Positions 1-64,000 of a stretch of 64,000 nucleotides of DNA are shown piece after piece. Position 1 is the stretch's first letter; each line of letters opens with the position of its first letter. Both the position numbers and the translations under genes were made by a program. This stretch comes from Tubiluchus corallicola (taxonomy: Eukaryota > Animalia > Priapulida), in contig JAQGDQ010000060.1 in assembly GCA_030141605.1 (NCBI GenBank), positions 620,001 through 684,000 on the forward strand, in the 5' to 3' direction. The notes below the pieces were generated by a model. It searched no databases and was not told where the DNA came from. It was given only the letters and a program-made list of their open reading frames with translations.

Positions 1-10974
<10,974 letters not shown>

Positions 10975-11556
10975 ATCTACAGTAGTTTAGCTTTGATACA
11001 TGTAAAGCTTTTATATGTGAAGTTGAAGACATTCCACGTGTCTGGAATACCGACCATAAACAGTGAAAACTAATGTGGTTGCTGTTCAGGTTACTTGCTT
11101 TCATTTTGTCACTTTTGTCACACGGGGTAAACGAACTCAGGTGGGATGACACATTTTGCCTGGCAACCTTTTAACCTGTTATGTCTTCTAAGTTGCTACT
11201 GATCTTGTTCACTGTTCCATTGTAAAGAGTGTAGGTAGACTGTATATGTAACTGTAATCACTAATCAATTAATTAACCATTACGTGATTTGTTGACTACA
11301 GAATTAACTACTATGTAAATTATGTATGAATTTCTGCATAATGGTATTGTACGTATAAAAAGGTGATAATGACAATAATAGTAGAAATAGTAATAGTATA
11401 GAAATAGTAATAGAAATAGTAAAAATAATAGTGTTATGGGCAAATTGCCCATACAATTTGTTTTTTCTTTTTCCCGCACGAGGGACCCAAAAACTGAAGC
11501 GGACGGGTGGGAATTGCTGGCAGAGTTATCTGGTTTTTTGTGGATAATGCAATGTG

Positions 11557-11929
11557 TTGTAATGTCGATAGTGCAATTTTGATGTAAGGAATTGGTTTTA
11601 TGCTTCAGCCATAAACGGTGTGCGCTCTTTGGCCGCACGAAGTGAGTGTTTTTTGTATATTTAATACATAGCAATTTTCTGTGTAATTTTTTTGTTCAAC
11701 TTCTGTGTTTTTTGTTCAAATTGCATTGCTGCAGATTTTATGTATTGTTTTGTTTTTCAAAGACTCCAGTGAACACATTAGGAAAGGAACTCTCGTGTTT
11801 GGCTGTATTAACATTTATTCTTTCGGCTGAAATGGACCGTGCATGCTGTTGGGTGTATGGAGCATAAACTGAAAGCGAGGAGCCATTTTTACTACCTTGA
11901 CACGGACGAACTAGTTTCATACATCACAG
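11557..11929 (+). mobile_element. Candidate 5' LTR of the BEL/Pao element
   Basis: TGT...ACA-bounded, T-rich non-coding segment about 365 bp upstream of the gag ATG. No second LTR is present to confirm the boundaries. Confidence 0.25.
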
Positions 11930-12293
11930 GAAGCCAGGCTGTACAAGCAATCAACTTACCTGTTTTACCCGTCTGAAGAACTTGGCTGCAGGGTGAATTA
12001 TGGAAAGTCAACCAGCTGTATGAAGTTACAGGTTTCTATCAACTAAATACACGTTTGAAGAAAACTTTTTGATGTAATCTGTATTGATACTTCATTGCAA
12101 TATTTCAATATTGAGAGAGAAAAATTGATCTAGCCTGTATACATGCTAAAAGACAGAGCTATGTTACAATTTGATGGTATAGTCTTTACAGTATTGGGTT
12201 TTTGGATATTATGCCAAGTTGCCATTACATTGTTGAATAGGTGTTGCATTGTTTAACATTGTTCTTGTTATAGTTTGTGCTAATGCTTTTATA

Positions 12294-14530
12294 ATGTCTG
12301 ATATAGAAAATTACACTGTTGAGCAGTTGAGAAAAAACTTGAAAGAGAGAGGGTTAAAGGTATCTGGGTCAAAAACCGAACTTATTGATAGATTAAAGGA
12401 GAGCATTACTAGGTTTTTACCTATTGAGCCCGGCCCTTCGGCCATCCATGAAGAAGATGCGCATAAGAGACAAACTTTAATGTCTAAATCTAATAAAGGA
12501 TCATCCAAAGCATCAGCTATTTCTTCTGTATTATCAAAAAGGGTAGCAGCAGAAGCTAGAAAAGCTGCTTTGCTGGTAGAAAGGAATGCCTTAGTGCAAA
12601 AGCAAGAGCTTGAACAAAAACAAAAAGAAATGGAACTGCAACAACAACGATTAAAGCAGCAACAAGAGCGCGTAGATCTGGAGACGAGACTCAAAGTAGC
12701 AAATGCCGAAGCTGCAGTGTACTCTAATTATGAAGCGAGTGAGCGCTCAATTTCCGAAGCAAGCTCTGAAAATAAAATAAGACGAGCCACTTCATGGGTA
12801 AAGGCACAGCAGACAAAGGATAAATTGGAAACCCCAAATGAAGCTCATGTAACCCTTGCAACTAATGACTTTTATGCTCAAAGCGCTATGGTCTTAGCTC
12901 ATTCTTTGCGAAAAACAAATACTAGGCATAGCATAGTTGTCATGGTAACAGCGCAGCTCTCGTCGAAGATTATGATACAAATGCAGACAATTTTTGATGA
13001 CGTTGAGCTTGTTGAAGAACAAATCTGCGACGGTTTAGAGGCGCTATATGCAGGACGTCCCGAGGTGAGAGCAACATACACCAAGCTTCATTGTTGGACT
13101 TTGACACGTTACTCTAAATGCATTTTCATGGATGCAGACACGATTGTCCTGCGAAATATTGATGACTTGTTTGAAAAAGAAGAACTTTCGGCGTCTCCTG
13201 ATATTGGTTGGCCTGACCATTTCAGCAGTGGTGTCATGGTCATCAGACCAAGTCTTGACACTTATAACAGTCTCTTAACCTTTGCCAGAACATTCCCAAG
13301 CTTTGATGGAGGAGATCAGGGCTTGTTGAACAGCTTTTTTAAAGACTGGAATCGTCTCCCCTTTAGGCCTTTACTTATAATGTTTCGGCATCTACGTGCT
13401 GCACATATCTACCTGCATTTGAAGCTTGTAGGGATGAAATAAAAGTTGTACATTTCCTTGGGAAAGAGAAGCCTTGGCAACACCATTAGAACAAGTTAAG
13501 AGATGTCATTACGCCACCATTTGGCGAGCCATTAAAGTATAATGCAGAGCATTTACGTTTATGGTGGAAATATTTCAATGAAATACAGACCACAAGCCAG
13601 CCTAATATTAATGAAAGCGAAACACATTTCTTTCAGCAGCCACGTGTACAAGATCAGCATTTTGGCAACCAACCAATTCAGTGTCAGCAACCTTATAGGC
13701 AACCAGGTAACCAAGCAACCATCTATGCATCTAACCCATGCAATCAACCTTTACAGCTTGAATATACCCCTGCAATGAATACAGGTATGCCTACCTATGG
13801 CGCCTTTAGCGGTTTTCCATTGCCTAGCATCCAACTCGAAACATTTGACGGTTCAGAACTCCAGTATGCTAGATTCATTAGACGTTTTGAATCAACTGTA
13901 GAGAATAACACGACAGATAGTGTTGCGAGACCTTCCCTTCTCCTGCAATTTTGTAGCGAAAAAGTGCGAAAATATATCGACTGTTGCATGAATATGCGCC
14001 CAGATATTGGTTACATGCGTGCCAAACAAATGCTGAAGGAGAGGTATGGTGATGAATTTTCCATTACGCAGGCCTGGTTGAAAGAAATATCAAGCTTCAA
14101 ATATATAAAAGCGTCCGAACCAGAGCTGCTTCGTGATTACGCTGATACTTTAAGAAGTTGCTCAGAAGCTTTATCTGCAGTTGGACACATATCTGAGGTA
14201 AACACGCAAGGAAACCTATCCCAGATTGTTGACAAATTACCGCCTGGAATTCATGCGTCATGGAGAAAGGAAGTCTATAAAATACGAACTTCAGGCAGAG
14301 ATCCCAGGATTGAAGATGTTGTGAGTTTCATTGAACTTCAGGCAAAAATAGAGAACAACCCAACGTATCGCAAGAAGCCTGTAGATAGAAAAGAAAGCAA
14401 GGAAAGCACAAAGCCCAAGTTTGGGAATGCCAAGACCTTTGCTAACACAAACACACAACAACCGCAAGCTGCAGATGATCCTAAGAGCAATGACAAGAGC
14501 TTAAGGATCCTAAGAGGTTTCAAATTTTAA
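12294..14530 (+). pseudogene. Gag N-terminal fusion: SAP domain + coiled coil + glycogenin GT8 + Q/P linker + capsid (disrupted)
   Basis: ATG at 12294 (MSDIENYTVEQLRKNLKERGLKVSGSKTELIDRL = SAP). Removing an 8-bp insertion at about 13365-13372 and reading through TAG at 13487 gives one continuous frame into ORF 13775-14530. Confidence 0.85.
12840..13582 (+). pseudogene. GYG1: Intronless glycogenin-like glycosyltransferase family 8 domain inside Gag
   Basis: EAHVTLATNDFY; TKLHCWTLTRYSKCIFMDADT (DxD); NIDDLFEKEELSASPDIGWPD; SFDGGDQGLLNSFF; after the frameshift LPFTYN..TYLPAF..IKVVHFLGKEKPW and EHLRLWWKYF. All collinear with animal glycogenin. Confidence 0.92.
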
Positions 14531-14532
14531 AA

Positions 14533-16670
14533 TGCATTTCCTGCTCAGGAGAACATCTACTAATTAAATGTCCTGCTTTCAAGAAGTTATCTGTTCAAGA
14601 ACGTCGCGAGTTTGTTACTCAAAATAAGCTTTGCTTCAACTGCTTAAAGCGCAACCACATCAGCAGAGATTGCAGATCTGAGAAAAGATGTAAGGTTTGC
14701 CATAAAGGGCACTCCAATTTTTTGCACCTGAAGAGGGAAGATACAGCAAGCGCCATACCAAACAGAGATGTTACACAGATTAAAGAAGCATATGGAAAGC
14801 GTAACCAATCTCCCAGAGTTGAGAACAACGCAAAGAAAGATAGAGATGCATCACCAAAGCCAAACTCTCACAGTGCATATGTAAAGCAACAAAAGCCAAA
14901 TGCAAGAACAGCTTTGCCTATACTACCAGTTCAAGTAAAGGTACCAGGCGGTGTACCAACTATGACTCTAGCTTTACTGGCCAATGGTTCAATTAATACA
15001 TTTTGTTCAGAGCCATTGCGTCTAAGACTAGGTACTCGGGGAAGGAGGATGTTTTACGTCTAACAACTCTGGAAAGGAAGATGAGTGAAAATAAGACTAC
15101 TGTTGTCAAGCTCAAAGTCTCGCATATTGACAATCAAGATTTCATGGATCTGCTATTCGTCTTCACCAGACCTTCCTTGATGTTCGATATGGAGAATATG
15201 CCAACGCAAGACCATCTAAAAGAATGGCTGCACCTTCAAGGGCTTGATTTCCATTGCCTAGATGGCAATTGCAGCAACTTAGATGTAGGTCTTTTAATTG
15301 GTCAAGACATACCTGAAGCACTCATGTCACTGGAGATTAAGACAGGTCCAAAATATGCACCTTGGGCGACACGTGCTAAACTTGGATGGACTTTGAATGG
15401 TCCGCTATGTTCAGGAGAAACTAAGATTGCCTTAAGTCATTATGCTCATGTGGAAGGGCTGCAGGAAGTGATTCAAAAATTTTGGCAGTTGGAAGAATGT
15501 CAAAATGAAACTGTCGGCATGTCTGTAGAGGATGCGAAAGCTATTAAAATTTGGAAAACTTCAGCTGTTGTAACTCCAGATGGGCATTACCAGATAAGAA
15601 TACCATTCAGAGACAAAAATCCTCAACTAGGGATAGTAAAGTCGTTGCTCTGTCCCGATTAACTTAGCAAAAAGATTCAGGCAGGACAGCATTTTTTCAT
15701 AATAAATATGCAAATGAAATTGCAACGTTGCTACGAAACGGACATGCAGAACTCGTTCTTAAGGATCATGAGCCTGTGCCCGGTAAAGTGTGGTACCTCC
15801 CACATTTTGCTGTCAAAAGTGAAAGCAAACCAGATAAGACCAGAGTGGTGTTCGACTGTGCAGTTATTTTTCGTGGAACAACTCTCAATAAGAATGTTTT
15901 ACAAGGACCTGACCTAACTAACAACCTTGTTGAGGTGTTGGTCAGGTTTCGTGAAAAGCCTATTGCAATTGCAGCAGACATCGAGAAGATGTTCTACCAA
16001 GTTTAAGTGCATCCAGATGACAGAGACGTTTTACGATTTATTTGGTGGCCTGATGGACACGTGGATTTAGAACCACAAATCTACCGGATGACAGTGCACA
16101 TATTTGGAGGCATCTAGTGCCCTAACATTGCATCCTTTGCATTGCGGAAGAGCAGAAGACAACATAGGGGACATAGATGAGGACATAGTCATTCAGACAG
16201 TTTTAAGGAACTTTTATGTTGATGATCTTCTGGCAACCACACAAACTGTAGCAGATGCTACCTCTCTGATCAAGGACCTTTCTGAATTACTTCACCGTGG
16301 AGGCTTTCACTTGACAAAATGGTCCAACAACAATCGGGAAGTAATATCTTCTGTAGCACCCAAAGATCGCAGCAATTACGTCAAAGAAATCGATCTTGAC
16401 CTAGATGCTACAGCTACTCTTCCTGTGGACAGGGTCCTTGGTATAATGTGGGACCTGGAATCAGATACTTTTAATATTAAAGTCAAGAAGGGCAGACCTA
16501 TGACCCGACGTGGGCTTTTGAGTGTCACAGCTTCGACCTATGACCCATTGGGTATAACCAGCCCATGCATCTTGAATGCCAAGCTTCTGTTTCAAGAAGA
16601 AACACGTCTAAAGAAAGATTGGGATGATGATCTTTCTGACCACATTAAGGCTAAATGGCAGGCATGGCTA
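14533..16670 (+). pseudogene. BEL/Pao zinc knuckles, aspartic protease and reverse transcriptase (frameshifted)
   Basis: ORF fragments 14722-15063, 15003-15662, 15728-16006 and 16104-16697 carry consecutive Pao pol motifs. Confidence 0.92.
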
Positions 16671-18849
16671 TTATATATAGCAACGATATATACATAACGT
16701 TGCTGTAAGGTAATATAATTTTAAAGCGATTTTCGTGAAACCTACTTTTTCTTGTCCTTTGTTAATTCAAGAATAGTTTTGTCCCATATGGCTTATTTAA
16801 TTTCCAAATTTAAGTTTCGACTCATTTATTGAGAGAAATGAGAGAAATCGTGGCATCTGAAAACCTGCTAGCTTCTACATTGATTATGTTAAAATGTATA
16901 CTTTTATCAGATTTGAAAATGGGATAGCACATGAAAAATTATCCTGTCTTCCTTTCAATGAAAAGGAATAGGAAGTAATTACTTTGGAACAGACAGAGTT
17001 TTTATAAATTTGAAAAGGTTTCGGTCATGCTGTCTCTACACGTTTTTTAGCTTGAAAAACTTACAAATATGACTCTTTCTAATTTTTCCAGGTACTATGC
17101 GTCTGCGTTACTGTTACCCAAGTAGAATGCCTCTTGATGCAGAAAACTTGTATGATTTTAAAAAGAAAAAATAATAATTGGACATTGCGCGGTGGCCCAC
17201 ACTGGTTGATTGTCGCCTGCCGATTTTGTATTGTTGTCCAGTTTGTCGAAAAAGTGATTCATGGATTGGACTACAGATTTACCTTAGGAACGACGAAAAA
17301 AACGGCCATCGTTTGACTTTGGTCACCTCACAACCATAAATCATCATCAGTTAACGTTAAAAGTGAAGCTAAGATCTATTAGTAACGCCAAGTTAAGCAG
17401 TTGTTATTAGGAAACTACATCTAATAATTTCCATAACATAACTAGCTTAATTATACTCGCTTAGCTGTAGTTAGAAAACAAATAAACCTGATTAGACTAG
17501 CAGCTGGGAGATTTGAACTGTACTACAGAGACTACAGTCAAGTAGTCAAAAACCAGCATGTAAATGTGCATATGGGTGATTCAGAAAAATGGTGTTTTAT
17601 TGTCACTTGGGGTCAGTGTCATTAAAAGCTGGCTGCTGTCGCAGGTTTAAAGTTAAAATAACTCAACTAGGTGGCATTTGAGGTGGCATAAATGTATTAA
17701 CAGCAGATTTAAAAATGTGGGTGGTCTATCAGAAAAATAGTATTTCAAGGTCAAACTCAATCAAACGGTCTGCAGACGAAGATTTATAGTCAAAATAACT
17801 CAACTAATTAACACCTTACCAGTTGATACAGGTAATGGTCTATCAGAAAAATCGTACTTCAAGGTCATTCAAGGTTATTGTAAATAACTGAAGTAGTAAA
17901 CATTACGGTTACATAACTATACTAGTAGCCGACATAGAAGTGCTGTATCATCACTGAACTGGTTGTTCACAGTCAAGGTCATACAAAATGGTCGCCGATG
18001 CACCTTTGAAGTCATCATAAAACATTAGGAAGCATGGTAGGCTGCATATCGGATTGTCTTTAAAGGGAATTTGGTCCCTGAATTCAACAATTTTGTTTCA
18101 CTGCATGAAATGGCTATATGCGGCTCTCGTGCTTTCTTGACAACAAATCTTTGGCAATGCTTAAACTGTGAAAACCAGTTTAAGAGAATTTCAGGTGTTG
18201 TAGTCCAGAGGATTCCGTCGCTTTTTTTTCTTGACAACAAATCTTTACCAGCGTTTAACTTTCTGTGGTGAAAACCGCTTTAATAGAATTCCAGGTGTTG
18301 TAGTCCAGAGAAATGCGTCCCTTTTTGCTTGACAACAAATCTTTACCAGCGTTTAACTTTCTGTGGTGAAAACCACTTCATTAGCCAACATTATTCATTA
18401 CTCTGGTATACTGCAAACGAATGCTTTCCAGCCATAATTTCAAAAACCACTAAATCTGTAAACTTGTAGTTTCTCACGACCAAAAGGTAATGTTTCCTGC
18501 TATCTCATCATTTTTGTGGAACTGGAATTTGAAGTTCCCGTGTCTTCAGGCTCAGTGTGCATCCATTTCTGAAACGTTACCGATTCTTAAGTCTCAGTCA
18601 GTTTAAACACACAACTTTTTTTAAAAACTTTAATTTACAATTAAAAACATGTCCAAAAGTTTCAACAGCAATCAGCTGTCATCATCAGTGGTAAATTTAT
18701 ACAAACAACAACCAGTTTATATAGGCAGAGCCTACAGTATACAAAATTATATAAATTAGAAATTATGTATTGCTTCATTTAATGTCTCGTATCAGAGAAT
18801 CTTTTTCGATGCTTATAAAAAATGTTCATGTTAATAATGCAGAACTGAT

Positions 18850-19318: not shown

Positions 19319-19746
19319 GATTGTTCTTCGTTCTTGCAGTGACCTAATAGACGTCAGTCTTTGTTCGGCCTCATTTCTTTCTTTGCTTTCGATGCGAGAA
19401 GGTGCGTTATTATTATTATTATTACTTGCAAGTCTCTTGTGCGTTCTTTAGTGGGCTATCATGGGGTGTTTTGATTTTTTATGCAACTGCGAGCGCCGTG
19501 AGGACCAACCGGTGCCTAGACGCTGGAGGATCCGGACCATATGGTCTAGGACCCGGGGGCTGTCGCTCCTATGCCCTCAGTCCATTCGTCTTCTGGGACC
19601 TCCACGCGTTGTAGTGGTGAGGGAGAGTCTTCCGGGACAACCACGGGGGCGGTTCGTCTTGGAAGCTCGAGTAGCATGGGTCTCCCTCTGGTTGAGTGCT
19701 GAATGTCATTCTTAAGTACTAACCTTACCGTACCATGCTCTCACAT

Positions 19747-20455
19747 CTGGGCTCTGATTAGGACAGCTACTATTGGACTGGCAGAGCCCCGTAATGTGAT
19801 AGGTGGGTTGAACGAAAATCTGGGCTCTGGTCAGGACAGCCACTATTAGACTGTCAGAGCCCCGTAAGTTGGTAGGTGGGGTTGAGCGGAAATCTGAGCT
19901 CTGGTCAGGACAGCCACTATTAGACTGGCAGAGCCCCATAAGTTGGTAGGTGGGTTGAACGAAAATCTGGGCTCTGGTCAGGACAGCCACTATTGGACTG
20001 GCAGAGCCCCGTAAGTTGGTAGGTGGGGTTGAACGAAAATCTGGGCTCTGGCCAGGACAGCCACAAATGGACTGGCAGAGCCCCGTAAGTTGGTAGGTGG
20101 GGTTGGGCGGAAATCTGGGCTCTGGTCAGGACAGCCACTATTGGACTGGCAGAGCCCCGTAAGTTGGTAGGTGGGGTTGAACGAAAATCTGGGCTCTGGT
20201 CAGGACAGCCACTATTGGACTGAGCCCCGTAAGTTGGTAGGTGGGGTTGAGCGGAATTCTGGGCTCTGGTCAGGACAGCCACTATTGGACTGTCAGAGCC
20301 CCGTAAGTTGGTAGGTGGGGTTGGGCGGAAATCTGGGCTCTGGTCAGGACAGCCACTATTGGACTGTCAGAGCCCCGTAAGTTGGTAGGTGGGATTGAGC
20401 GGAAATCTAGGCTCTGGTCAGGACAGCCACTATTGGACTGTCAGAGCCCCGTAAG
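19747..20455. repeat. 74-bp GC-rich tandem repeat, about 9.5 copies, each with an internal hairpin
   Basis: Unit CTGGGCTCTGGTCAGGACAGCCACTATTGGACTGGCAGAGCCCCGTAAGTTGGTAGGTGGGGTTGAACGAAAAT; GGGCTCTG/CAGAGCCC inverted repeat. Confidence 0.95.
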
Positions 20456-20479
20456 GTGCCTCGGGGGGAGGGGGGGCCT

Positions 20480-20656
20480 GGCTCACGGTAGTGCGTGCAC
20501 TACAGGGGTGTGTGATGCGTTAGGCGTAATTGCCTACTAAAGCTAACTGTAGACGAACAGTTGGCACACAGCCTCTCCACACCCAAGACTCCTGCGTAAC
20601 CTCCACGAGGTGCGAGCTGGTAACTGCCCCATTACAGGAGCAGGCTAATCAGCAGG
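20480..20656 (+). ncRNA. HDV-like self-cleaving ribozyme fold
   Basis: P1 GGCTCAC(20480-86)/GCGAGCT(20612-18); P2 CCTGC(20591)/GCAGG(20652-56); P3 ACC/GGT; L3 TCCACGA; P1.1 CC/GG(20619-20); P4 CTGCCCC/GGAGCAG; J4/2 GCTAA with the candidate catalytic C at 20645. Confidence 0.7.
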
Positions 20657-24906: not shown

Positions 24907-26285
24907 AGGAAAAGTCAAGCTTTTTAAGCGGTTAGACTTATTTCAATGTTCGCAAAAAATGTTAGAAGGATTTAGTAATAAAACTGCAATAAGCGCCTCG
25001 TGTAACTAATAAAATCACTTTAATGTCGTGATCACTTCATGCTTGGGCGCTCCCATTTTCAATGTCCATTCTTCTTCCAATGACTTCATTTGTCTTAAAG
25101 AAAAGTAGTGCTTCGTCAAAAGCTTCGTCAAAAGTATTGTTGCGCTGGCAAAATGGCATTTATTTTTTACCACTCCCCTATTCATTGTGATGGTTTGATC
25201 CATTACGAAGCCATTGCATAACAGCACTGCATAGCAGCTATAAGAATGGCTTCATCGGTTCAGTCGGCAGGTGGACAGGTGCGTTTATCACCTAAGCACC
25301 TGTTCCGTGGTCACAATCAGCATGTGAAACGCAGGGAAAGATCTGACAAGTTTTCATCTTACTTTTCTGTTTACATTTTTATATTTCTTTTTTTTATTTT
25401 CACATCCACAACGTTTGTCTGCAACATGGTTTGGCTGATCTAGATTTGAGCCCTTGACCATTTGGCCGCCACCGTAACAGTATAATAAGTTTTCACAAAA
25501 TAATTAGATAACTAATTTTGTAATATTTTTACGTGAACATTGCGTAAGCTGCATAAATTTGAAGTAGTTTAAGCTGTGCGCTTTTGGAAAGCCACGAAGT
25601 CTCCCAGTTACGTAATGATTTTCAAGTGAATGGCGGCAACCATCACGCCTGAAAAATTGTATTCAGCAGTAGTCGATTTTAAATCTAGGCTCTTTGCCAA
25701 TTTCGTTTATTATATTTTTTAAAACTTTAAGTGATGACAGTAAAATAGATTTAGATATTTATTTATTAGTGTCAAAAATACATACAAGACATACATACAA
25801 TTTCAGTTTTGAAATATACAAAAAAACAAGACATATATAATTTCAATTTTGAAATATACAAAAAACAAGACATGTATACAATTTCAATTTTGAAATATAC
25901 AAAAACCAAGACATATATACAATTTCAATTTTGAAATATACAAAAACCAAGACATATATACAATTTCAATTTTGAAATATACAAAAAACACGACATATAT
26001 AATTTCAATTTTGAAATATACAAAAAACAAGACATATACACAATTTCAATTTTGAAATATACAAGAAACAAGACATATATACAATTTCAATTTTGAAATA
26101 TACAAAAAACAAGACATATACACAATTTCAATTTTGAAATATACAAAAAACAAGACATATATACACTTTCAATTTTGAAATATACAAAAAACAAGACATA
26201 TACAATTTCAATTATGAAATATAATAACACTATAATTATGCAAAAAAAATAATGACCCAACATGCTAAGTGAATTGTTATTTCCT
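24907..26285. mobile_element. Kolobok-type MITE (family B) carrying a 41-bp tandem array
   Basis: TTAA|AGGAA...TTCCT|TTAA; homologous in inverted orientation to 32407-32943. Confidence 0.7.
25785..26222. repeat. About 41-bp AT-rich tandem repeat, about 10 copies
   Basis: Unit CAATTTCAATTTTGAAATATACAAAAAACAAGACATATATA. Confidence 0.93.
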
Positions 26286-32300: not shown

Positions 32301-35300
32301 TAATTTATGATTTATGTCTCATCCAGGTACAGCCGTCATGTGTAGCTACATTCAAGTTCTGTTTCACTGAATCTGTTGGTCGAGGCTTATGTATAATCTT
32401 TGTAAAAGGAGAGAACAATTCACTCCGTATGTTGGGTTTATTTTACTGTTATCACTTAAACTTAGAAAAATATAACAAAGAAATTTGCAAAGAACTGCCT
32501 ATAAAGCATAAATTTAAAATGTACTGCCTCTGAATAGAAATTTTCGGGCGTGGTGGTTGCCGCAATTCACTTAAAAATTATGACGTAACTGGGAGACTTC
32601 GTGACTTTCCGTAAACGCGGGCTGCTCATATTAATTCACACTTCTGCAGCTTAACCAATGTTCACACAAAATTATTACAAATTAGCTATCTAATTTTTTT
32701 CTAAAAACTTATTATACCTTTGCTGAAGATTGACAGTGCGCTAATTTTCTTGAAGACGAATGACATCGTTGGAAGAAGAATGGGTATTGAAAATGGGAGC
32801 GCCCAAACATGAAGTGATCGCGACTTTAAAATGATTTTACTAGTTAGACGAGACGCTTATTGTAGCTTTATTACTAAATCATTCTAACATTTTTGTACGA
32901 ACAATGAAATAAGCCTAACCTCCTATAAAGGTTGACCTTTCCTTTAATATGTCGAACTACAGTTTAGTGTTTGAAGACCTTCTACTTTAGTTAATTCACT
33001 TTATTTTTATAATTTGTTGTTTGTGTGTCCCATGGTTAATGTCATAAGGCATTTAGTTAACTATGTTGACCCATTGCTTAAAAAATGTACATGTTTATTG
33101 TGATAACTTTATAAGCTATGGTTAAACTGACGTAATTCAGTGTTTTTTCGCTACTTCCATTTGAATCACTGTTATTGTAATGTATTGTACCTGCTTTTTA
33201 AATCTTTGTCCCCATTTGCTTAGTGCTCACAGTTCTGTTGCATCATTGTGGATACCTAAGCTTTGGAATAAAGTGGGAAAATAATGTGCACATTATTTCA
33301 TTTTTCCAGAAAAATGTGGAAATGGGAAAGCCTAAGCGACCACTATCCATGTTTAGCTTGTTTATGCAAGACAGGGCGGCAGAAAGAACACCGGATGATA
33401 TGCCTGGAGTAAGAATTTTTTCTGGCCCATTTCTTGCTAATAGAACAGCTTGCCCATAGGAGTCTTGTAAAGTTGCTATTTATTGAACAATACTCGGGTT
33501 GGTCCGGAGATTTTTTCTTTGTAAATTGTCAATTCTAACTTGGCAGTTTTCTTAGATGAGAATTTTAAAGGAAATCACTTTACAGATTACAGAATGAAAT
33601 CCACACCTAAACTGTAAACAGTCACATTCAATTTTGCTCTGTGCTCATGTCTTTTTGTTTACATTGTATGGTCTATTTATACGCAACTGCATCAGATTAC
33701 ACAAAGTCATTGCATACATGCAGTATTAATAATAACGCCAGGGTCACATAAGGTCGTCATAGTTATCCATTGACTCAGTTATTAGATCTACCAAGAATAA
33801 GAAACATTTTAATAGCGCTCTAACAGCTCGCCTCGAATTTTAAAATGACTCATCTGCATATTTGAAAAGACAAGAGCTGTTCCGGTGATGTTATATGCGT
33901 GCTTGCACAGCATCATCATCCGTAATTTGGCATTTAATTTTTTCTAGTTATTCACACGTCCTGGGTCTCCATTTCATGAGGATCATTTTGATACAAAGCT
34001 CTATGTTATTTCTAAGCTGAGATAATCAACGTTGAAGTTGAGTTGCACGCTATGCACTGAAAAACATAATCTTGAGTAAATCACTGTTATAGTCGGCCAT
34101 TGTTTTCTATCGCATATCTACAAAACATTTAGCAACATCGCAAATGTTGGTTGCTACGGACTTTACAAGAACACATTGAAACTATATTTAAATCCAGTAG
34201 ATGGCTCTTTCTGACAAAGATATGGGCTTGGCAACAAAAAAAAACCCGAAGCAAAATGACAGCTTCCATGCGCTTTTTACAATTACAGTACTAGTTTCTA
34301 GATAAGAAATTGACATTTGAACAAATTTTTGGTGCATTCTACTTTGAAGTATCATAACGTAGTTTTAACTAAGTCGACTTATGAACGGTTTTGGTTTGCA
34401 AACACACATATAATCTTTATTTATTGAAAGTGGACAAAACAGTTATAAGTCTCTTCACAGAATCATTTTCTGCTCGTTGTCTCAAAAAACGAGAAGTAAA
34501 CCATTTGCATTATTTTTACAGCATTTTCTCAAGCATTGCGCTGACCAGTGGGCAATGATGCCAGCTAGCGAGAAACAGGTAACTGTTTATTTGTTTGTAC
34601 TGGACTCCAACTATTTGTTCCAGGTTTGTACGTGTCTGCGTTCAACAACTTTTTTGCTTTCCAGATTTTCTATATTTGATGTTGAGCTACAGTTCATAAA
34701 TCAACATTAAATTTAATTTATCGTGATATTGTTGATTATCAATAATAAATTATCGTCGTGTTTTGATTTGATGTAATTAAGAATTATGAAATTCTTTCAT
34801 TATGAAATAATTTTAAAGATTTATTTCAGCCATACAGGGCCCCTTTACAATGCCAGCCTCGCCTAATACCCAAATTTTTAGCAGAACAAATATCTATATT
34901 TGCATAGACATGTATGTATAAATGCACCTCGTCATAATGCCAAACTCGCTTAGCGCCAACTTTTTTGGCAATTCCAAAGTAGATGGCGTAAAGATGTTAG
35001 ACTGTATACCATTTAAATGACACAGAGACTTGACTGTTAAAGCAAGACAGGATGATTTTTTAAAAATATCCCATTTTCAAATCCGACAAAAGTATACATT
35101 TTAATACAATTAATACTGCAAAAGTATTTCTGATGATTAAATAATAAATTAAAAACTTAATTACAGCGGGTGAGCCCAACTATTTATGACATCACAAACT
35201 AGCATAATTTTCGACAGCAAATATATTCCATGAGCGTGTTGAACGTATTTGTGAAAGTGAAAGTTAAAGTACAGTGCTACTGTCAGATATTCAATGTGTT

Positions 35301-39715: not shown

Positions 39716-42700
39716 CTAGACACCAATGATATCAAGCGTTCCATTCAGAGTGACAAACGTGAAGAAAAAGATGGAAAAGTCCCTCGTCACGTCTCCAGCT
39801 GTTGCTATTGTCTTACCAAGCATCTTAACCCTTTCGTCTGTCATTCCAGCGAGGATAAGCGCTCGCAGTAACAAGCTCAGTTCTTCTTTTACTGGTGTAG
39901 GCGGCATTTTCTATCATGAAAAAGATGCAAAACAGTCTTCTTGATTATTTTATTAGAACGTGAGCTAAAACGTGCTTACTAAGTACGAGAAAACCGCCTA
40001 GAAAACTATTAACTGCTACATTGGTAGTAGTTGGCACACTGCCATCTACACTCAAACACATTAGACTTGGTCTTTAGAATTAGTCATTATTATTTGAAAT
40101 ATTGCATAACAGTGCAATGAAGTACGTGCCAGGAAGATCAAACTATTTTTTGTAAAAGGGATTACTGAAGAAACGCTACCAAAAACAAACTATGATTTCT
40201 TTACGAAGAGATTAATTATTCAATATTAATTGCTTATTAATATCTAGAAAACTTTCAGACCACCAACAAAGATACCAATAAATGGATTGTTAAGTTTAGC
40301 AACACGTAAAAAAGTACAATAGATTATTGTATTCCCCTAATTGCTATGATGTAGCTAACTCATTGTAAAAGCATCCAGTATAATTATTAAGTCTGGCAGT
40401 TAAGGACGAAAACTCAGGCACCAATGGTTGTTTTTATTTTAAACAAAAATGTTTTTAATTTCTTCACTGCCACAGAGTGTTAGCAATTGGGTACCCGAGT
40501 ACTCGACAGGTATAAAGAAAGGGGTACTCAACTCCTTTGCTACCTGCGTAAACATTTTGTAGTCACCACCATTAACGAATTAGGCCCAATTCTGCTTGAC
40601 TTCATAAGCATACACGATGACCACTCAGCTACACTGTTTGGTGTAATTAGTCTGTGTGGAAAAATAATCTCACACAAACTGAGTGCACTTTTTCGTCTTT
40701 TTCCGGTACTTAATTAGTCTGTGTTGCATTGCGCAGCACAGGTTTTGAACACTTGAAACACTTGATCATGCAACCTGGCAACCGACTCTGTACAAGTAGT
40801 TAATACCCGGCAAGACGAACACGGCATGATATTTGCCAGCAAGGCAATGATACGCACTGGCCTGACACTGGATGCAGACGACAAATGGAAAACAATGCAA
40901 CCGTAGTCAGAGTCGCAGGAAATCGTAGCAAAGGCACCAGGAAGGGTTTAATGGAAGCTAGTCGATGAAGAAAACTTTAGTTTCAAGTTTGAACACGCTG
41001 AAGAAGATTCTGTTTTTGAAAAGCAAAAAATTGTTTCTGTCATTTGATTTAGATTGAAATTAAACTGGAAGGAAAAAATATTGTATAAAATTAGTCTGTG
41101 TAAAGAATTATAATAACACAGACAAATTTTGATACAGTGCAAGTTGAAAAGCTGGTTTCAAATTTAGTTTCTCACACACTAATTACATTAAACAGTGTCC
41201 TTGCCCAGTAATGATATCTAAAATTTGTTTTATAACCACCCCGTCTGCTACAAAACAATGCGAAGAAGGCATGATGATGATGATGTTTACCTGTGTTACT
41301 ATTTTTTCGTAGCCCAGTATCACTAGCTCCAGGATGATAAAGGAACAGACAATACTTTCCGGGAACAGGAAACTCAAGCCGATGGGAGACGATATCCGTA
41401 TCAGCACCGCAAGAGCTACTGACAAGTATAGTCTGGCAATGGGCAGGTACTTCAATGCAGTTGCTGCCTGAAATGACAAAACATATTTAACACCAGGAAC
41501 TTGATGTACCAAGTTAAGTGGCATTTACATAGCATCTGGATGCGTTTTCCACCAGCGGAACAGCCTGTGGAAAAAGAATAATGTATATGTGAGCTACACA
41601 AGCAAGTACATTGAAAACAATACAGACCAATTTTATCTATTCCGCACCACCCAAAATGCATGAGCATCCGGATGATACGTAAACTCCATTTTATTCCTGC
41701 AAACCTAGACTATTTCGATGACCAAAGAAGGCTAGGAAGACACTAAAAAACATCTTTGTATCTGCAGGGTTCTCAGTTTGGCACAGCACTACTTATGCTG
41801 ATTCAAATTACTTTTAAATAAACCATTTCCTACTTGCATGTCATATTTAAAAATACAGCAAACAGTGCAAATGCATATTGCTGTCGTCCATGTTTAATGC
41901 AAATGCACATTGGTGTCCCTCATGTTTAATGCAAATGCACATTGGTGTCCCTCATGTTTAATGCAAATGCACATTGGTGTCGTCCATGTTTAATGCAAAT
42001 GCACATTGGTGTCCCTCACGTTTAATGCAAATGCACATTGGTGTCCCTCATGTTTAATGCATAGGCCATCCATGTTGTGAAAACAGCTAGCCTACCTTGG
42101 TTAAGAATGTCTTTATTTTGCTGGGTTCAAGTTAATTGTTCAGTAGGCATAGGACTATTCACACTGATCAGATAAAATTGCTAGATGACCAGGGGAGTCG
42201 GCACATTGAACTATGGACTCTGGCCCCGACTCCTAGAATTTTAGATGATCCAACTCCGACTCCAGCTCTTAAAATTTTAGATCCAACTCCGACTCCAGCT
42301 CTTAAAATTTTAGATCCGACTCTGATTCGTAAAATTTTAGGAGCGACAACTCCGACTCTGATTCCTAAAATTGTAGGAGCCACAACTCCTGCTTTTAAAT
42401 AATAGTTTGTAGCACTCTCAATATTTAGCTACAGTGGCATTTCATCACTACTTCTTATGCTCGAAAAACAGTCTAGCTGCATAAACACCAATACGAAAGC
42501 GTCCCAAATTGGAACTTATGCATAAATGCATTAAAAGTAACTGGAGTTTGAGTTTGTCTATTTTGTACCGACTCCTCTAACAATAAGTGTACTCCCAAGT
42601 CCAGACTCCCACTCCAAAACCCTAAGTTTTAACAACTCCAACTCTTCTAGCAGTAAATTTACTATTGGTGTCTATGCCGACTCCCACTCCACAGCCCTGA

Positions 42701-47488: not shown

Positions 47489-63858
<16,370 letters not shown>

Positions 63859-64000
63859 CTGAAAAAATTACATTCAATTTATTTGTTAAATTGCTACGTT
63901 TATTAAAATGATGCAAAATTTAATCAACATACGTAAACCAAACTTTATTCATAATATAACTTATACATCCTGTAACGTACCTGCCACGCTAAATGATTCA

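Follow-up and report, generated by a model that had tools for sequence, protein, structure and literature searches.

The locus described here lies in the genome of the priapulid Tubiluchus corallicola (assembly GCA_030141605.1, contig JAQGDQ010000060.1, positions 620,001 to 684,000 of the forward strand). This whole stretch of 64,000 nucleotides is called the window in the following, and all coordinates refer to it. Between 12294 and 16670 it carries the remnants of a BEL/Pao retrotransposon, in whose Gag region a glycogenin domain of the glycosyltransferase family GT8 is embedded. The window was compared with contigs from sample S1 (runs X1 to X3), from the independent sample S2 (run X4) and from a third sample with the same species label (run X5, compared over 12740-13700 only). 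The stretch was present in four of six runs, from two samples, and four versions were distinguished, namely W (the window itself), B, C, and D. The following features were assigned:

12294..12407, plus strand: start codon and SAP domain of Gag (PF02037, E 7.1e-11, amino acids 3-38)
12519..12770, plus strand: coiled coil of a BEL-type Gag N-terminus (26% over 92 amino acids to the intact BEL polyprotein P0065, pairwise E 0.006; a low-complexity, weak match)
12837..13582, plus strand: catalytic GT8 domain of a glycogenin, free of introns and reaching from the equivalent of human residue 3 as far as the WW helix, with the DxD motif at 13131-13139
13361..13372, plus strand: 8-nucleotide frameshift, specific to the window's version
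13400..13402, plus strand: position of the self-glucosylated tyrosine (human Y195), a cysteine in the window copy and the family residue in B and D
13487..13489, plus strand: stop codon within GT8, common to the window and version B of sample S2
13583..13819, plus strand: linker of 79 amino acids rich in Q and P, belonging to Gag or to glycogenin, with the true 3′ join somewhere within
13820..14419, plus strand: BEL/Pao capsid domain DUF1759 (PF03564, E 9.3e-7; 31% to amino acids 325-525 of P0065; Atlas DUF1759 clusters at 0.92-0.94)
14533..14730, plus strand: three zinc knuckles, past a frameshift (the middle one zf-CCHC, E 5e-4, the others assigned by translation)
14877..15620, plus strand: protease region (26% to amino acids 670-922 of P0065), with the catalytic aspartate gone and a frameshift near 15060
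15683..16670, plus strand: reverse transcriptase and partial Peptidase_A17 (43-45% to amino acids 945-1270 of P0065; PF05380, E 2.7e-13)
10800..11850, no strand assigned: candidate long terminal repeat (LTR), a repeated 5′ region where variant contigs are numerous and reach 10 at 11500

The open reading frame (ORF) at 12294-13442 holds the SAP (PF02037) and GT8 (PF01501, E 3e-11) domains in a single frame, and the ORF at 13490-14530 (346 codons) comprises the last glycogenin helix with its WW motif, the Q/P-rich linker and DUF1759, again all in one frame. Past the 8-nucleotide frameshift, GT8 and the capsid ORF share one frame. The order named in the original prediction, which was made from the sequence by eye of a model and ran from SAP, coiled coil, glycogenin, linker and capsid domain to knuckles, protease and reverse transcriptase, was borne out by domain matches and translations. 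In P0065 the coiled coil and the capsid domain are separated by 93 amino acids, compared to 33 amino acids, the GT8 domain and 79 amino acids in the window, and the GT8 domain therefore sits inside the usual low-complexity linker between coil and capsid. Three zinc knuckles are typical of BEL elements. The order protease, reverse transcriptase and Peptidase_A17, the latter matched over the first 56 of 162 positions of PF05380, is colinear with amino acids 573-1270 of P0065 at up to 45% (tblastn), and for RNase H and integrase tblastn found no match in the window to P0065 past amino acid 1270. The capsid ORF had no match among solved structures. Judged by its capsid, its knuckles and the order of protease and reverse transcriptase, the element is a dead, 3′-truncated BEL/Pao relic. 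It is considered dead because pol contains frameshifts and stops (in the reverse transcriptase part stops near 16004 and 16115 and a frameshift near 16150), the protease aspartate is lost, and the element breaks off near 16690 without integrase or 3′ LTR. BEL/Pao elements carry two LTRs of 0.2-1.2 kb (PMC3118150); within the window no 3′ LTR, direct repeat or second copy of the 5′ region was found. The summed contig depth of the repeated region at 10800-11850 was well over that of the coding part in run X2, with contig depth not taken as copy number. GC content at third codon positions (GC3) and CpG content did not separate GT8 from the remaining element. Just past the broken end of the element, at 16827-16955, there is a short high-copy repeat, relatives of which occur at 9664-9732 and 35039-35114.

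Against solved glycogenins, the GT8 domain matched human GYG1 with E 1e-58, beginning at residue 3 of the latter, and the next family followed at 7e-27. A tblastn search with a snail glycogenin covered residues 8-257 over 12840-13582 in two frames and free of introns, in accordance with the predicted lack of introns in this piece. The motifs DxD, GGDQG, H212, K-P-W, and TKL are kept, and the dimer contacts Y197, D160, and W128 named in PMC12267440 are present, as assigned by motif. The tail motif that binds glycogen synthase had no match in the six frames of the window, compared to 149 of 281 host glycogenins. By these matches the cargo is a glycogenin catalytic domain, yet not a full glycogenin, the tail being missing; it would act as a glycogenin primer at most. 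As for the domain limits, the predicted start a few residues into the enzyme and the absent tail stood, whereas the precise 3′ end did not, an annelid glycogenin aligning weakly as far as 13759 (31%). The 3′ join lies somewhere in 13583-13819, and a domain-precise end there is not established, because host glycogenins also run on into variable Q/P-rich linkers. The two interruptions originally named were found as well, the stop at 13487-13489 and the frameshift, which the read comparison places from 13361 on instead of at 13365-13372; the cysteine in place of the acceptor tyrosine and the loss of the protease aspartate had been missed. Among host genes, the eukaryotic glycogenin gene L001:3104-4116 apparently has one short intron, and near-intronless host glycogenins hence exist.

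The loop after GGDQG (13340-13375) has 13 residues instead of 18-19 and is about 6 shorter than usual. Such a short loop occurs in 7 of 189 motif-bearing host glycogenins, including those of an annelid, an amphipod, a tardigrade and an aphelid, and since a quick tree does not group its carriers, it arose several times. In this tree (48 rows, with three named rows omitted for coverage, and unable to name a donor), the window GT8 fell among animal and choanoflagellate glycogenins at an unresolved place, with an end branch of 1.51 compared to a median of 0.46. Its median identity to host glycogenins is 48%, lower than for 278 of 281 host sequences. Of the near-invariant columns it retains 53 of 62, whereas of the variable ones it shares only 14 of 72. 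Had a neutral retrocopy diverged to this degree, most of its invariant residues would be gone.

Both joins are spanned by contigs of S1 (X1-X3) and of S2 (X4). In X4, a contig at 12756-13019 spans the 5′ join and a contig of 1120 nucleotides at 13012-14137 links GT8 to the capsid. No contig skipping the domain was found among those at least 80% alike, a comparison outside which relatives too diverged at the join fall, and family members without GT8 may therefore exist. Version B differs from W by about 2%, is present in S1 and S2 and does not have the frameshift of W (runs X1, X2, and X4). Over 13012-13700, the X4 contig differs by 12 substitutions and 23 gap letters, all located and none at the stop at 13487. 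Programmed read-through of this stop was considered, and nothing supports it. In X2, W and B are equally deep, at about 170-210 each. Also in X4, one version departs after 13019 and another contig starts at 13012, a pattern that would fit a later insertion in GT8 with an 8-nucleotide target duplication.

Version C is an intronless S1 contig of 431 nucleotides, roughly 80% alike; between 13296 and 13484 it shows 24 substitutions and 19 gap letters. Version D consists of four contigs in X5, each less than 90% alike (about 89%), at depth 2.5-3.7. One of these extends past the WW motif to 13602 with one difference in 33 nucleotides. The D contigs bear non-triplet gaps, and at the frameshift of W the D piece is 8 letters shorter. 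No D-like sequence at 89% was found in the deep S1 runs, whose three contigs below 90% are C and two gapped pieces of B. Because of this absence from S1 and the non-triplet gaps, D is no functional host gene of that individual's kind. If S1 stems from a single diploid animal, its three versions imply at least two loci. The SAP and coiled-coil parts, too, have diverged relatives in S1 and S2, at a depth similar to that of C. These relatives of the 5′ part lie over 12083-12634 in runs X1, X2, and X4; one aligns from the coiled coil onward, one apparently skips about 519 nucleotides with the SAP domain (12089 to 12609), and one matches the SAP region only (86%).

Selection on the GT8 domain was assessed from 40 of 79 difference rows, including 21 of 47 D places, picked by depth and position. 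Of the differences specific to D, 11 of 17 were synonymous with 4.9 expected (p 0.002). After removal of two sites adjacent to the frameshift and matching of CpG context, this changed to 10 of 16 with 5.0 expected (p 0.009), equivalent to a dN/dS ratio (omega) of about 0.27. For W and B together, 4 of 17 differences were synonymous with 4.6 expected, a neutral value (omega about 1.2), and the two sets differ by Fisher's test (p 0.037). The dN/dS among copies, proposed as a check in the original prediction, is consequently low for the D-only set and not for W and B. All four W-specific changes were non-synonymous, three of them in columns 99-100% conserved across the 281 glycogenins, and at these three columns, one of which is the acceptor tyrosine, B and D retain the family residue. 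On these counts, the pattern is the one expected for transposon copies, in which the tips decay neutrally and constraint acts between lineages. Sequencing errors at low depth would dilute a synonymous bias, not create it.

Database searches for a similar fusion returned none among 64 long GT8 matches, the best 120 of 402 near-length matches, topped by one at 59%, and the best 150 of 4806 representatives. Queries with SAP/coil, capsid, knuckles or the BEL polyprotein matched none of 201 proteins compared, and the 27 glycogenin-like matches inspected with Pfam contained no retroelement domain. GT8 is absent from P0065, the sole long protein related to the capsid ORF. Viral contigs gave no match, metagenome contigs gave three loci, all of them ordinary glycogenin genes without BEL sequence, and the Atlas matches to the Gag N-terminus all remained under 0.9. 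In the literature, no glycogenin or glycosyltransferase in a Gag was found, subscription papers and Repbase being outside this coverage. Domain capture by LTR elements is known as such, and the glycogenin cargo is apparently new.

All these observations might be explained best by a family-level fusion, in which a catalytic glycogenin domain was part of Gag and under selection in replicating elements, a reading to which we assign a probability of roughly 55%. The original prediction had likewise favored a fusion in an active family over a chance retrocopy, for which the diverged intronless versions, the synonymous bias and the kept residues speak. That the fusion belonged to the Gag of an active family is not proven, and several points weigh against it. 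None of the versions seen is open from GT8 into the capsid, and only W and the near-identical B are physically linked to the capsid, the contigs of C and D containing neither capsid nor pol. The stop at 13487-13489 is common to W and to B of S2, and W and B may be alleles of one dead locus. Version B has its own lesions, namely losses of 6 and 9 nucleotides from the conserved core, in one X4 version an insertion at 13019 and, in S1, rearrangements near 13517-13591. Of the D-only places, up to 43 in number, the selection test draws on 16-17, in contigs at depth 2.5-3.7, and the constraint could predate the capture if the host glycogenin or a paralog evolves fast. The nine departures among the 62 near-invariant columns are more than in 95% of host glycogenins. 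Since no fused protein turned up in the database searches, the family would also have to be narrow or unsampled.

The alternative that survives best is a one-off passenger, i.e., a fast-evolving intronless host duplicate copied once into a BEL element, with C and D as dead duplicates and with selection predating the capture. This is rather unlikely, while retaining an appreciable share of the probability. It would account for the fact that W and B alone are linked to the capsid, have a stop in common and differ neutrally, and the match of D beyond the WW motif (to 13602) may belong to the linker of glycogenin itself. Animals are moreover reported to have many LTR-mediated retrocopies, which frequently keep the frame of the parent gene (PMC5131818), and a sense orientation with two in-frame joins would by arithmetic occur by chance in about 1 of 18 cases, before the selection of this locus in the original prediction. 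Such a passenger requires, however, intronless and broken copies, 80-89% alike and with a synonymous bias, which is the pattern of transposon copies. It is also disfavored by the absence of the tail motif from the window, by the diverged SAP and coiled-coil relatives in the same runs at a depth similar to that of C, and by the retention of gag and pol on either side, where typical retrocopies have the interior of the element replaced.

The fusion could also be family-level with GT8 serving as a non-catalytic dimerizing or glucan-binding module that cross-links Gag or anchors it to glycogen. Six near-invariant positions depart that were not identified as recent decay, the C loop is poorly conserved in the window GT8, and human GYG2 is described as retaining fold and tyrosine while hardly self-glucosylating (PMC12267440). 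Nevertheless, the retention of DxD, H212, GGDQG, TKL, and KPW along a long branch, and of the acceptor tyrosine in B and D, makes a loss of catalysis improbable. Quite improbable, too, is a domesticated chimera, in which a single insertion gave rise to a host SAP-coil-glycogenin(-Gag) gene that evolved under purifying selection and died later, D representing this locus in a cryptic species or in a population that has diverged. X5 indeed contains D but no near-identical copy, in B the shared stop would still permit a SAP-coil-GT8 protein about 390 amino acids long, and co-option of Gag with host-gene fusion is recorded, once for Bel-Pao (PMC8321522). This is opposed by C as a third version in the same sample, by the damage in all versions seen and by pol, which at 43-45% identity to the intact BEL polyprotein has not decayed far beyond gag. 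An assembly chimera joining a retrotransposon with a glycogenin gene or transcript was raised in the original prediction itself, with only the oddity of the arrangement speaking for it, and is ruled out for practical purposes by the joins crossed in three S1 runs and in the independent S2.

For the favored reading of a selected catalytic fusion, the following course of events is conceivable. The glycogenin domain would have been captured long ago from a host mRNA, most likely by template switching onto the spliced mRNA during reverse transcription (PMC5131818), and would then have been kept under constraint in those elements that replicated, with every copy decaying once it had been inserted. 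Glycogenin is known to act as a dimer that builds an α-1,4 chain of 8-12 glucose residues on its own tyrosine, and to recruit glycogen synthase through about 34 C-terminal residues (PMC9188544; PMC12267440; PMC7046021). By analogy, packing of Gag into a lattice might crowd GT8 domains into dimers, which would use UDP-glucose to form such a chain of 8-12 residues on the acceptor tyrosine, and the particle protein would thereby gain short glucan chains. With GT8 located N-terminal to the capsid domain, the glucan might face the cytoplasm. In retroviral Gag, the N-terminal part faces outward. The glucan could serve to mask Gag or particles or to attach them to glycogen stored in germ cells. As the C-terminal tail is missing, glycogen synthase would not be recruited in the usual way, and docking via this enzyme is weakened. 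A self-glucosylating Gag in a BEL/Pao lineage, whose primed glucans coat the particle or store the element with egg glycogen, is put forward only tentatively. If it were true, glycogenin in Gag would link glycogen metabolism with particle assembly or with storage in the germ line, and the element would represent a natural capsid protein glycosylating itself in the cytosol, i.e., a retroelement with a carbohydrate-building enzyme in its capsid precursor. Should the domain have been copied only once, the locus would still be a clean in-frame domain capture, of modest interest.

Apart from the element, the window contains large exons of a host gene at 47489-50149 and 60212-61108 (both minus strand), with a frame of 886 amino acids that ends acidic and then Q/P-rich and has no Pfam match; its end resembles the C-terminus of KAT6 (MOZ/MORF) acetyltransferases. 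Minisatellites were found at 5073-5942 (38 nucleotides), 19709-20513 (74), 25738-26264 (41), 41834-42089 (32), and 63055-63860 (44), next to long (TATTG)n arrays at 21.6-23.5 kb.

Compared to known systems, the cargo resembles glycogenin-1 as described in PMC9188544 in its catalytic domain, the metal-binding DxD, His212 and the position of the acceptor tyrosine (kept in B and D), and differs from it by the missing glycogen-synthase-binding motif, the shorter loop, the fusion at both ends and the broken window copy. LTR-mediated retrocopies in animals, which are intronless pieces of host mRNA inside an LTR element (Tan et al., 2016; PMC5131818), are likewise intronless and in sense, and the mechanism of capture is likely the same. 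These retrocopies are reported to be mostly young, near-identical to the parent and flanked by discontinuous parts of the element. In contrast, the cargo found here is at most 57-59% identical to known glycogenins among the matches listed, and gag and pol continue in frame on both sides. Co-option of gag with host-gene fusions has been documented as well (PMC8321522).

Host-like domains inside an LTR polyprotein are represented by the giant Gypsy-like Burro elements of planarians, for which BIR, BCL2, MATH, ankyrin, and ubiquitin-like domains in frame in the polyprotein are reported (PMC6431247). Burro elements belong to Gypsy, measure 25-30 kb, occur in thousands of copies and carry regulatory cargo behind Gag, whereas the window element belongs to BEL/Pao and carries, ahead of the capsid domain, a single metabolic enzyme. 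Bdelloid LTR elements, with a GDSL esterase and a DEDDy exonuclease in ORF3 (PMC5408684), also represent the capture of enzymes by animal LTR elements, theirs being located in a separate ORF3 after pol and not within Gag. The AlkB/2-ODD demethylase of orchid Gypsy elements is a captured enzyme reported to be active in vitro (PMC9289625); among the 15 frequent extra domains named in the text of that study no glycosyltransferase appears, with Supplementary Figure 1 possibly listing rarer ones. Captured domains give a hint of what constrains a mobile element within its host, and the LTR cargoes described in these papers concern RNA, chromatin, membranes or apoptosis. The orchid AlkB differs from the GT8 domain by its separate ORF, its RNA substrate, its plant Gypsy background and its many intact consensuses. 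In both cases a host enzyme resides in an LTR element, and AlkB is described as having become fixed in its lineage.

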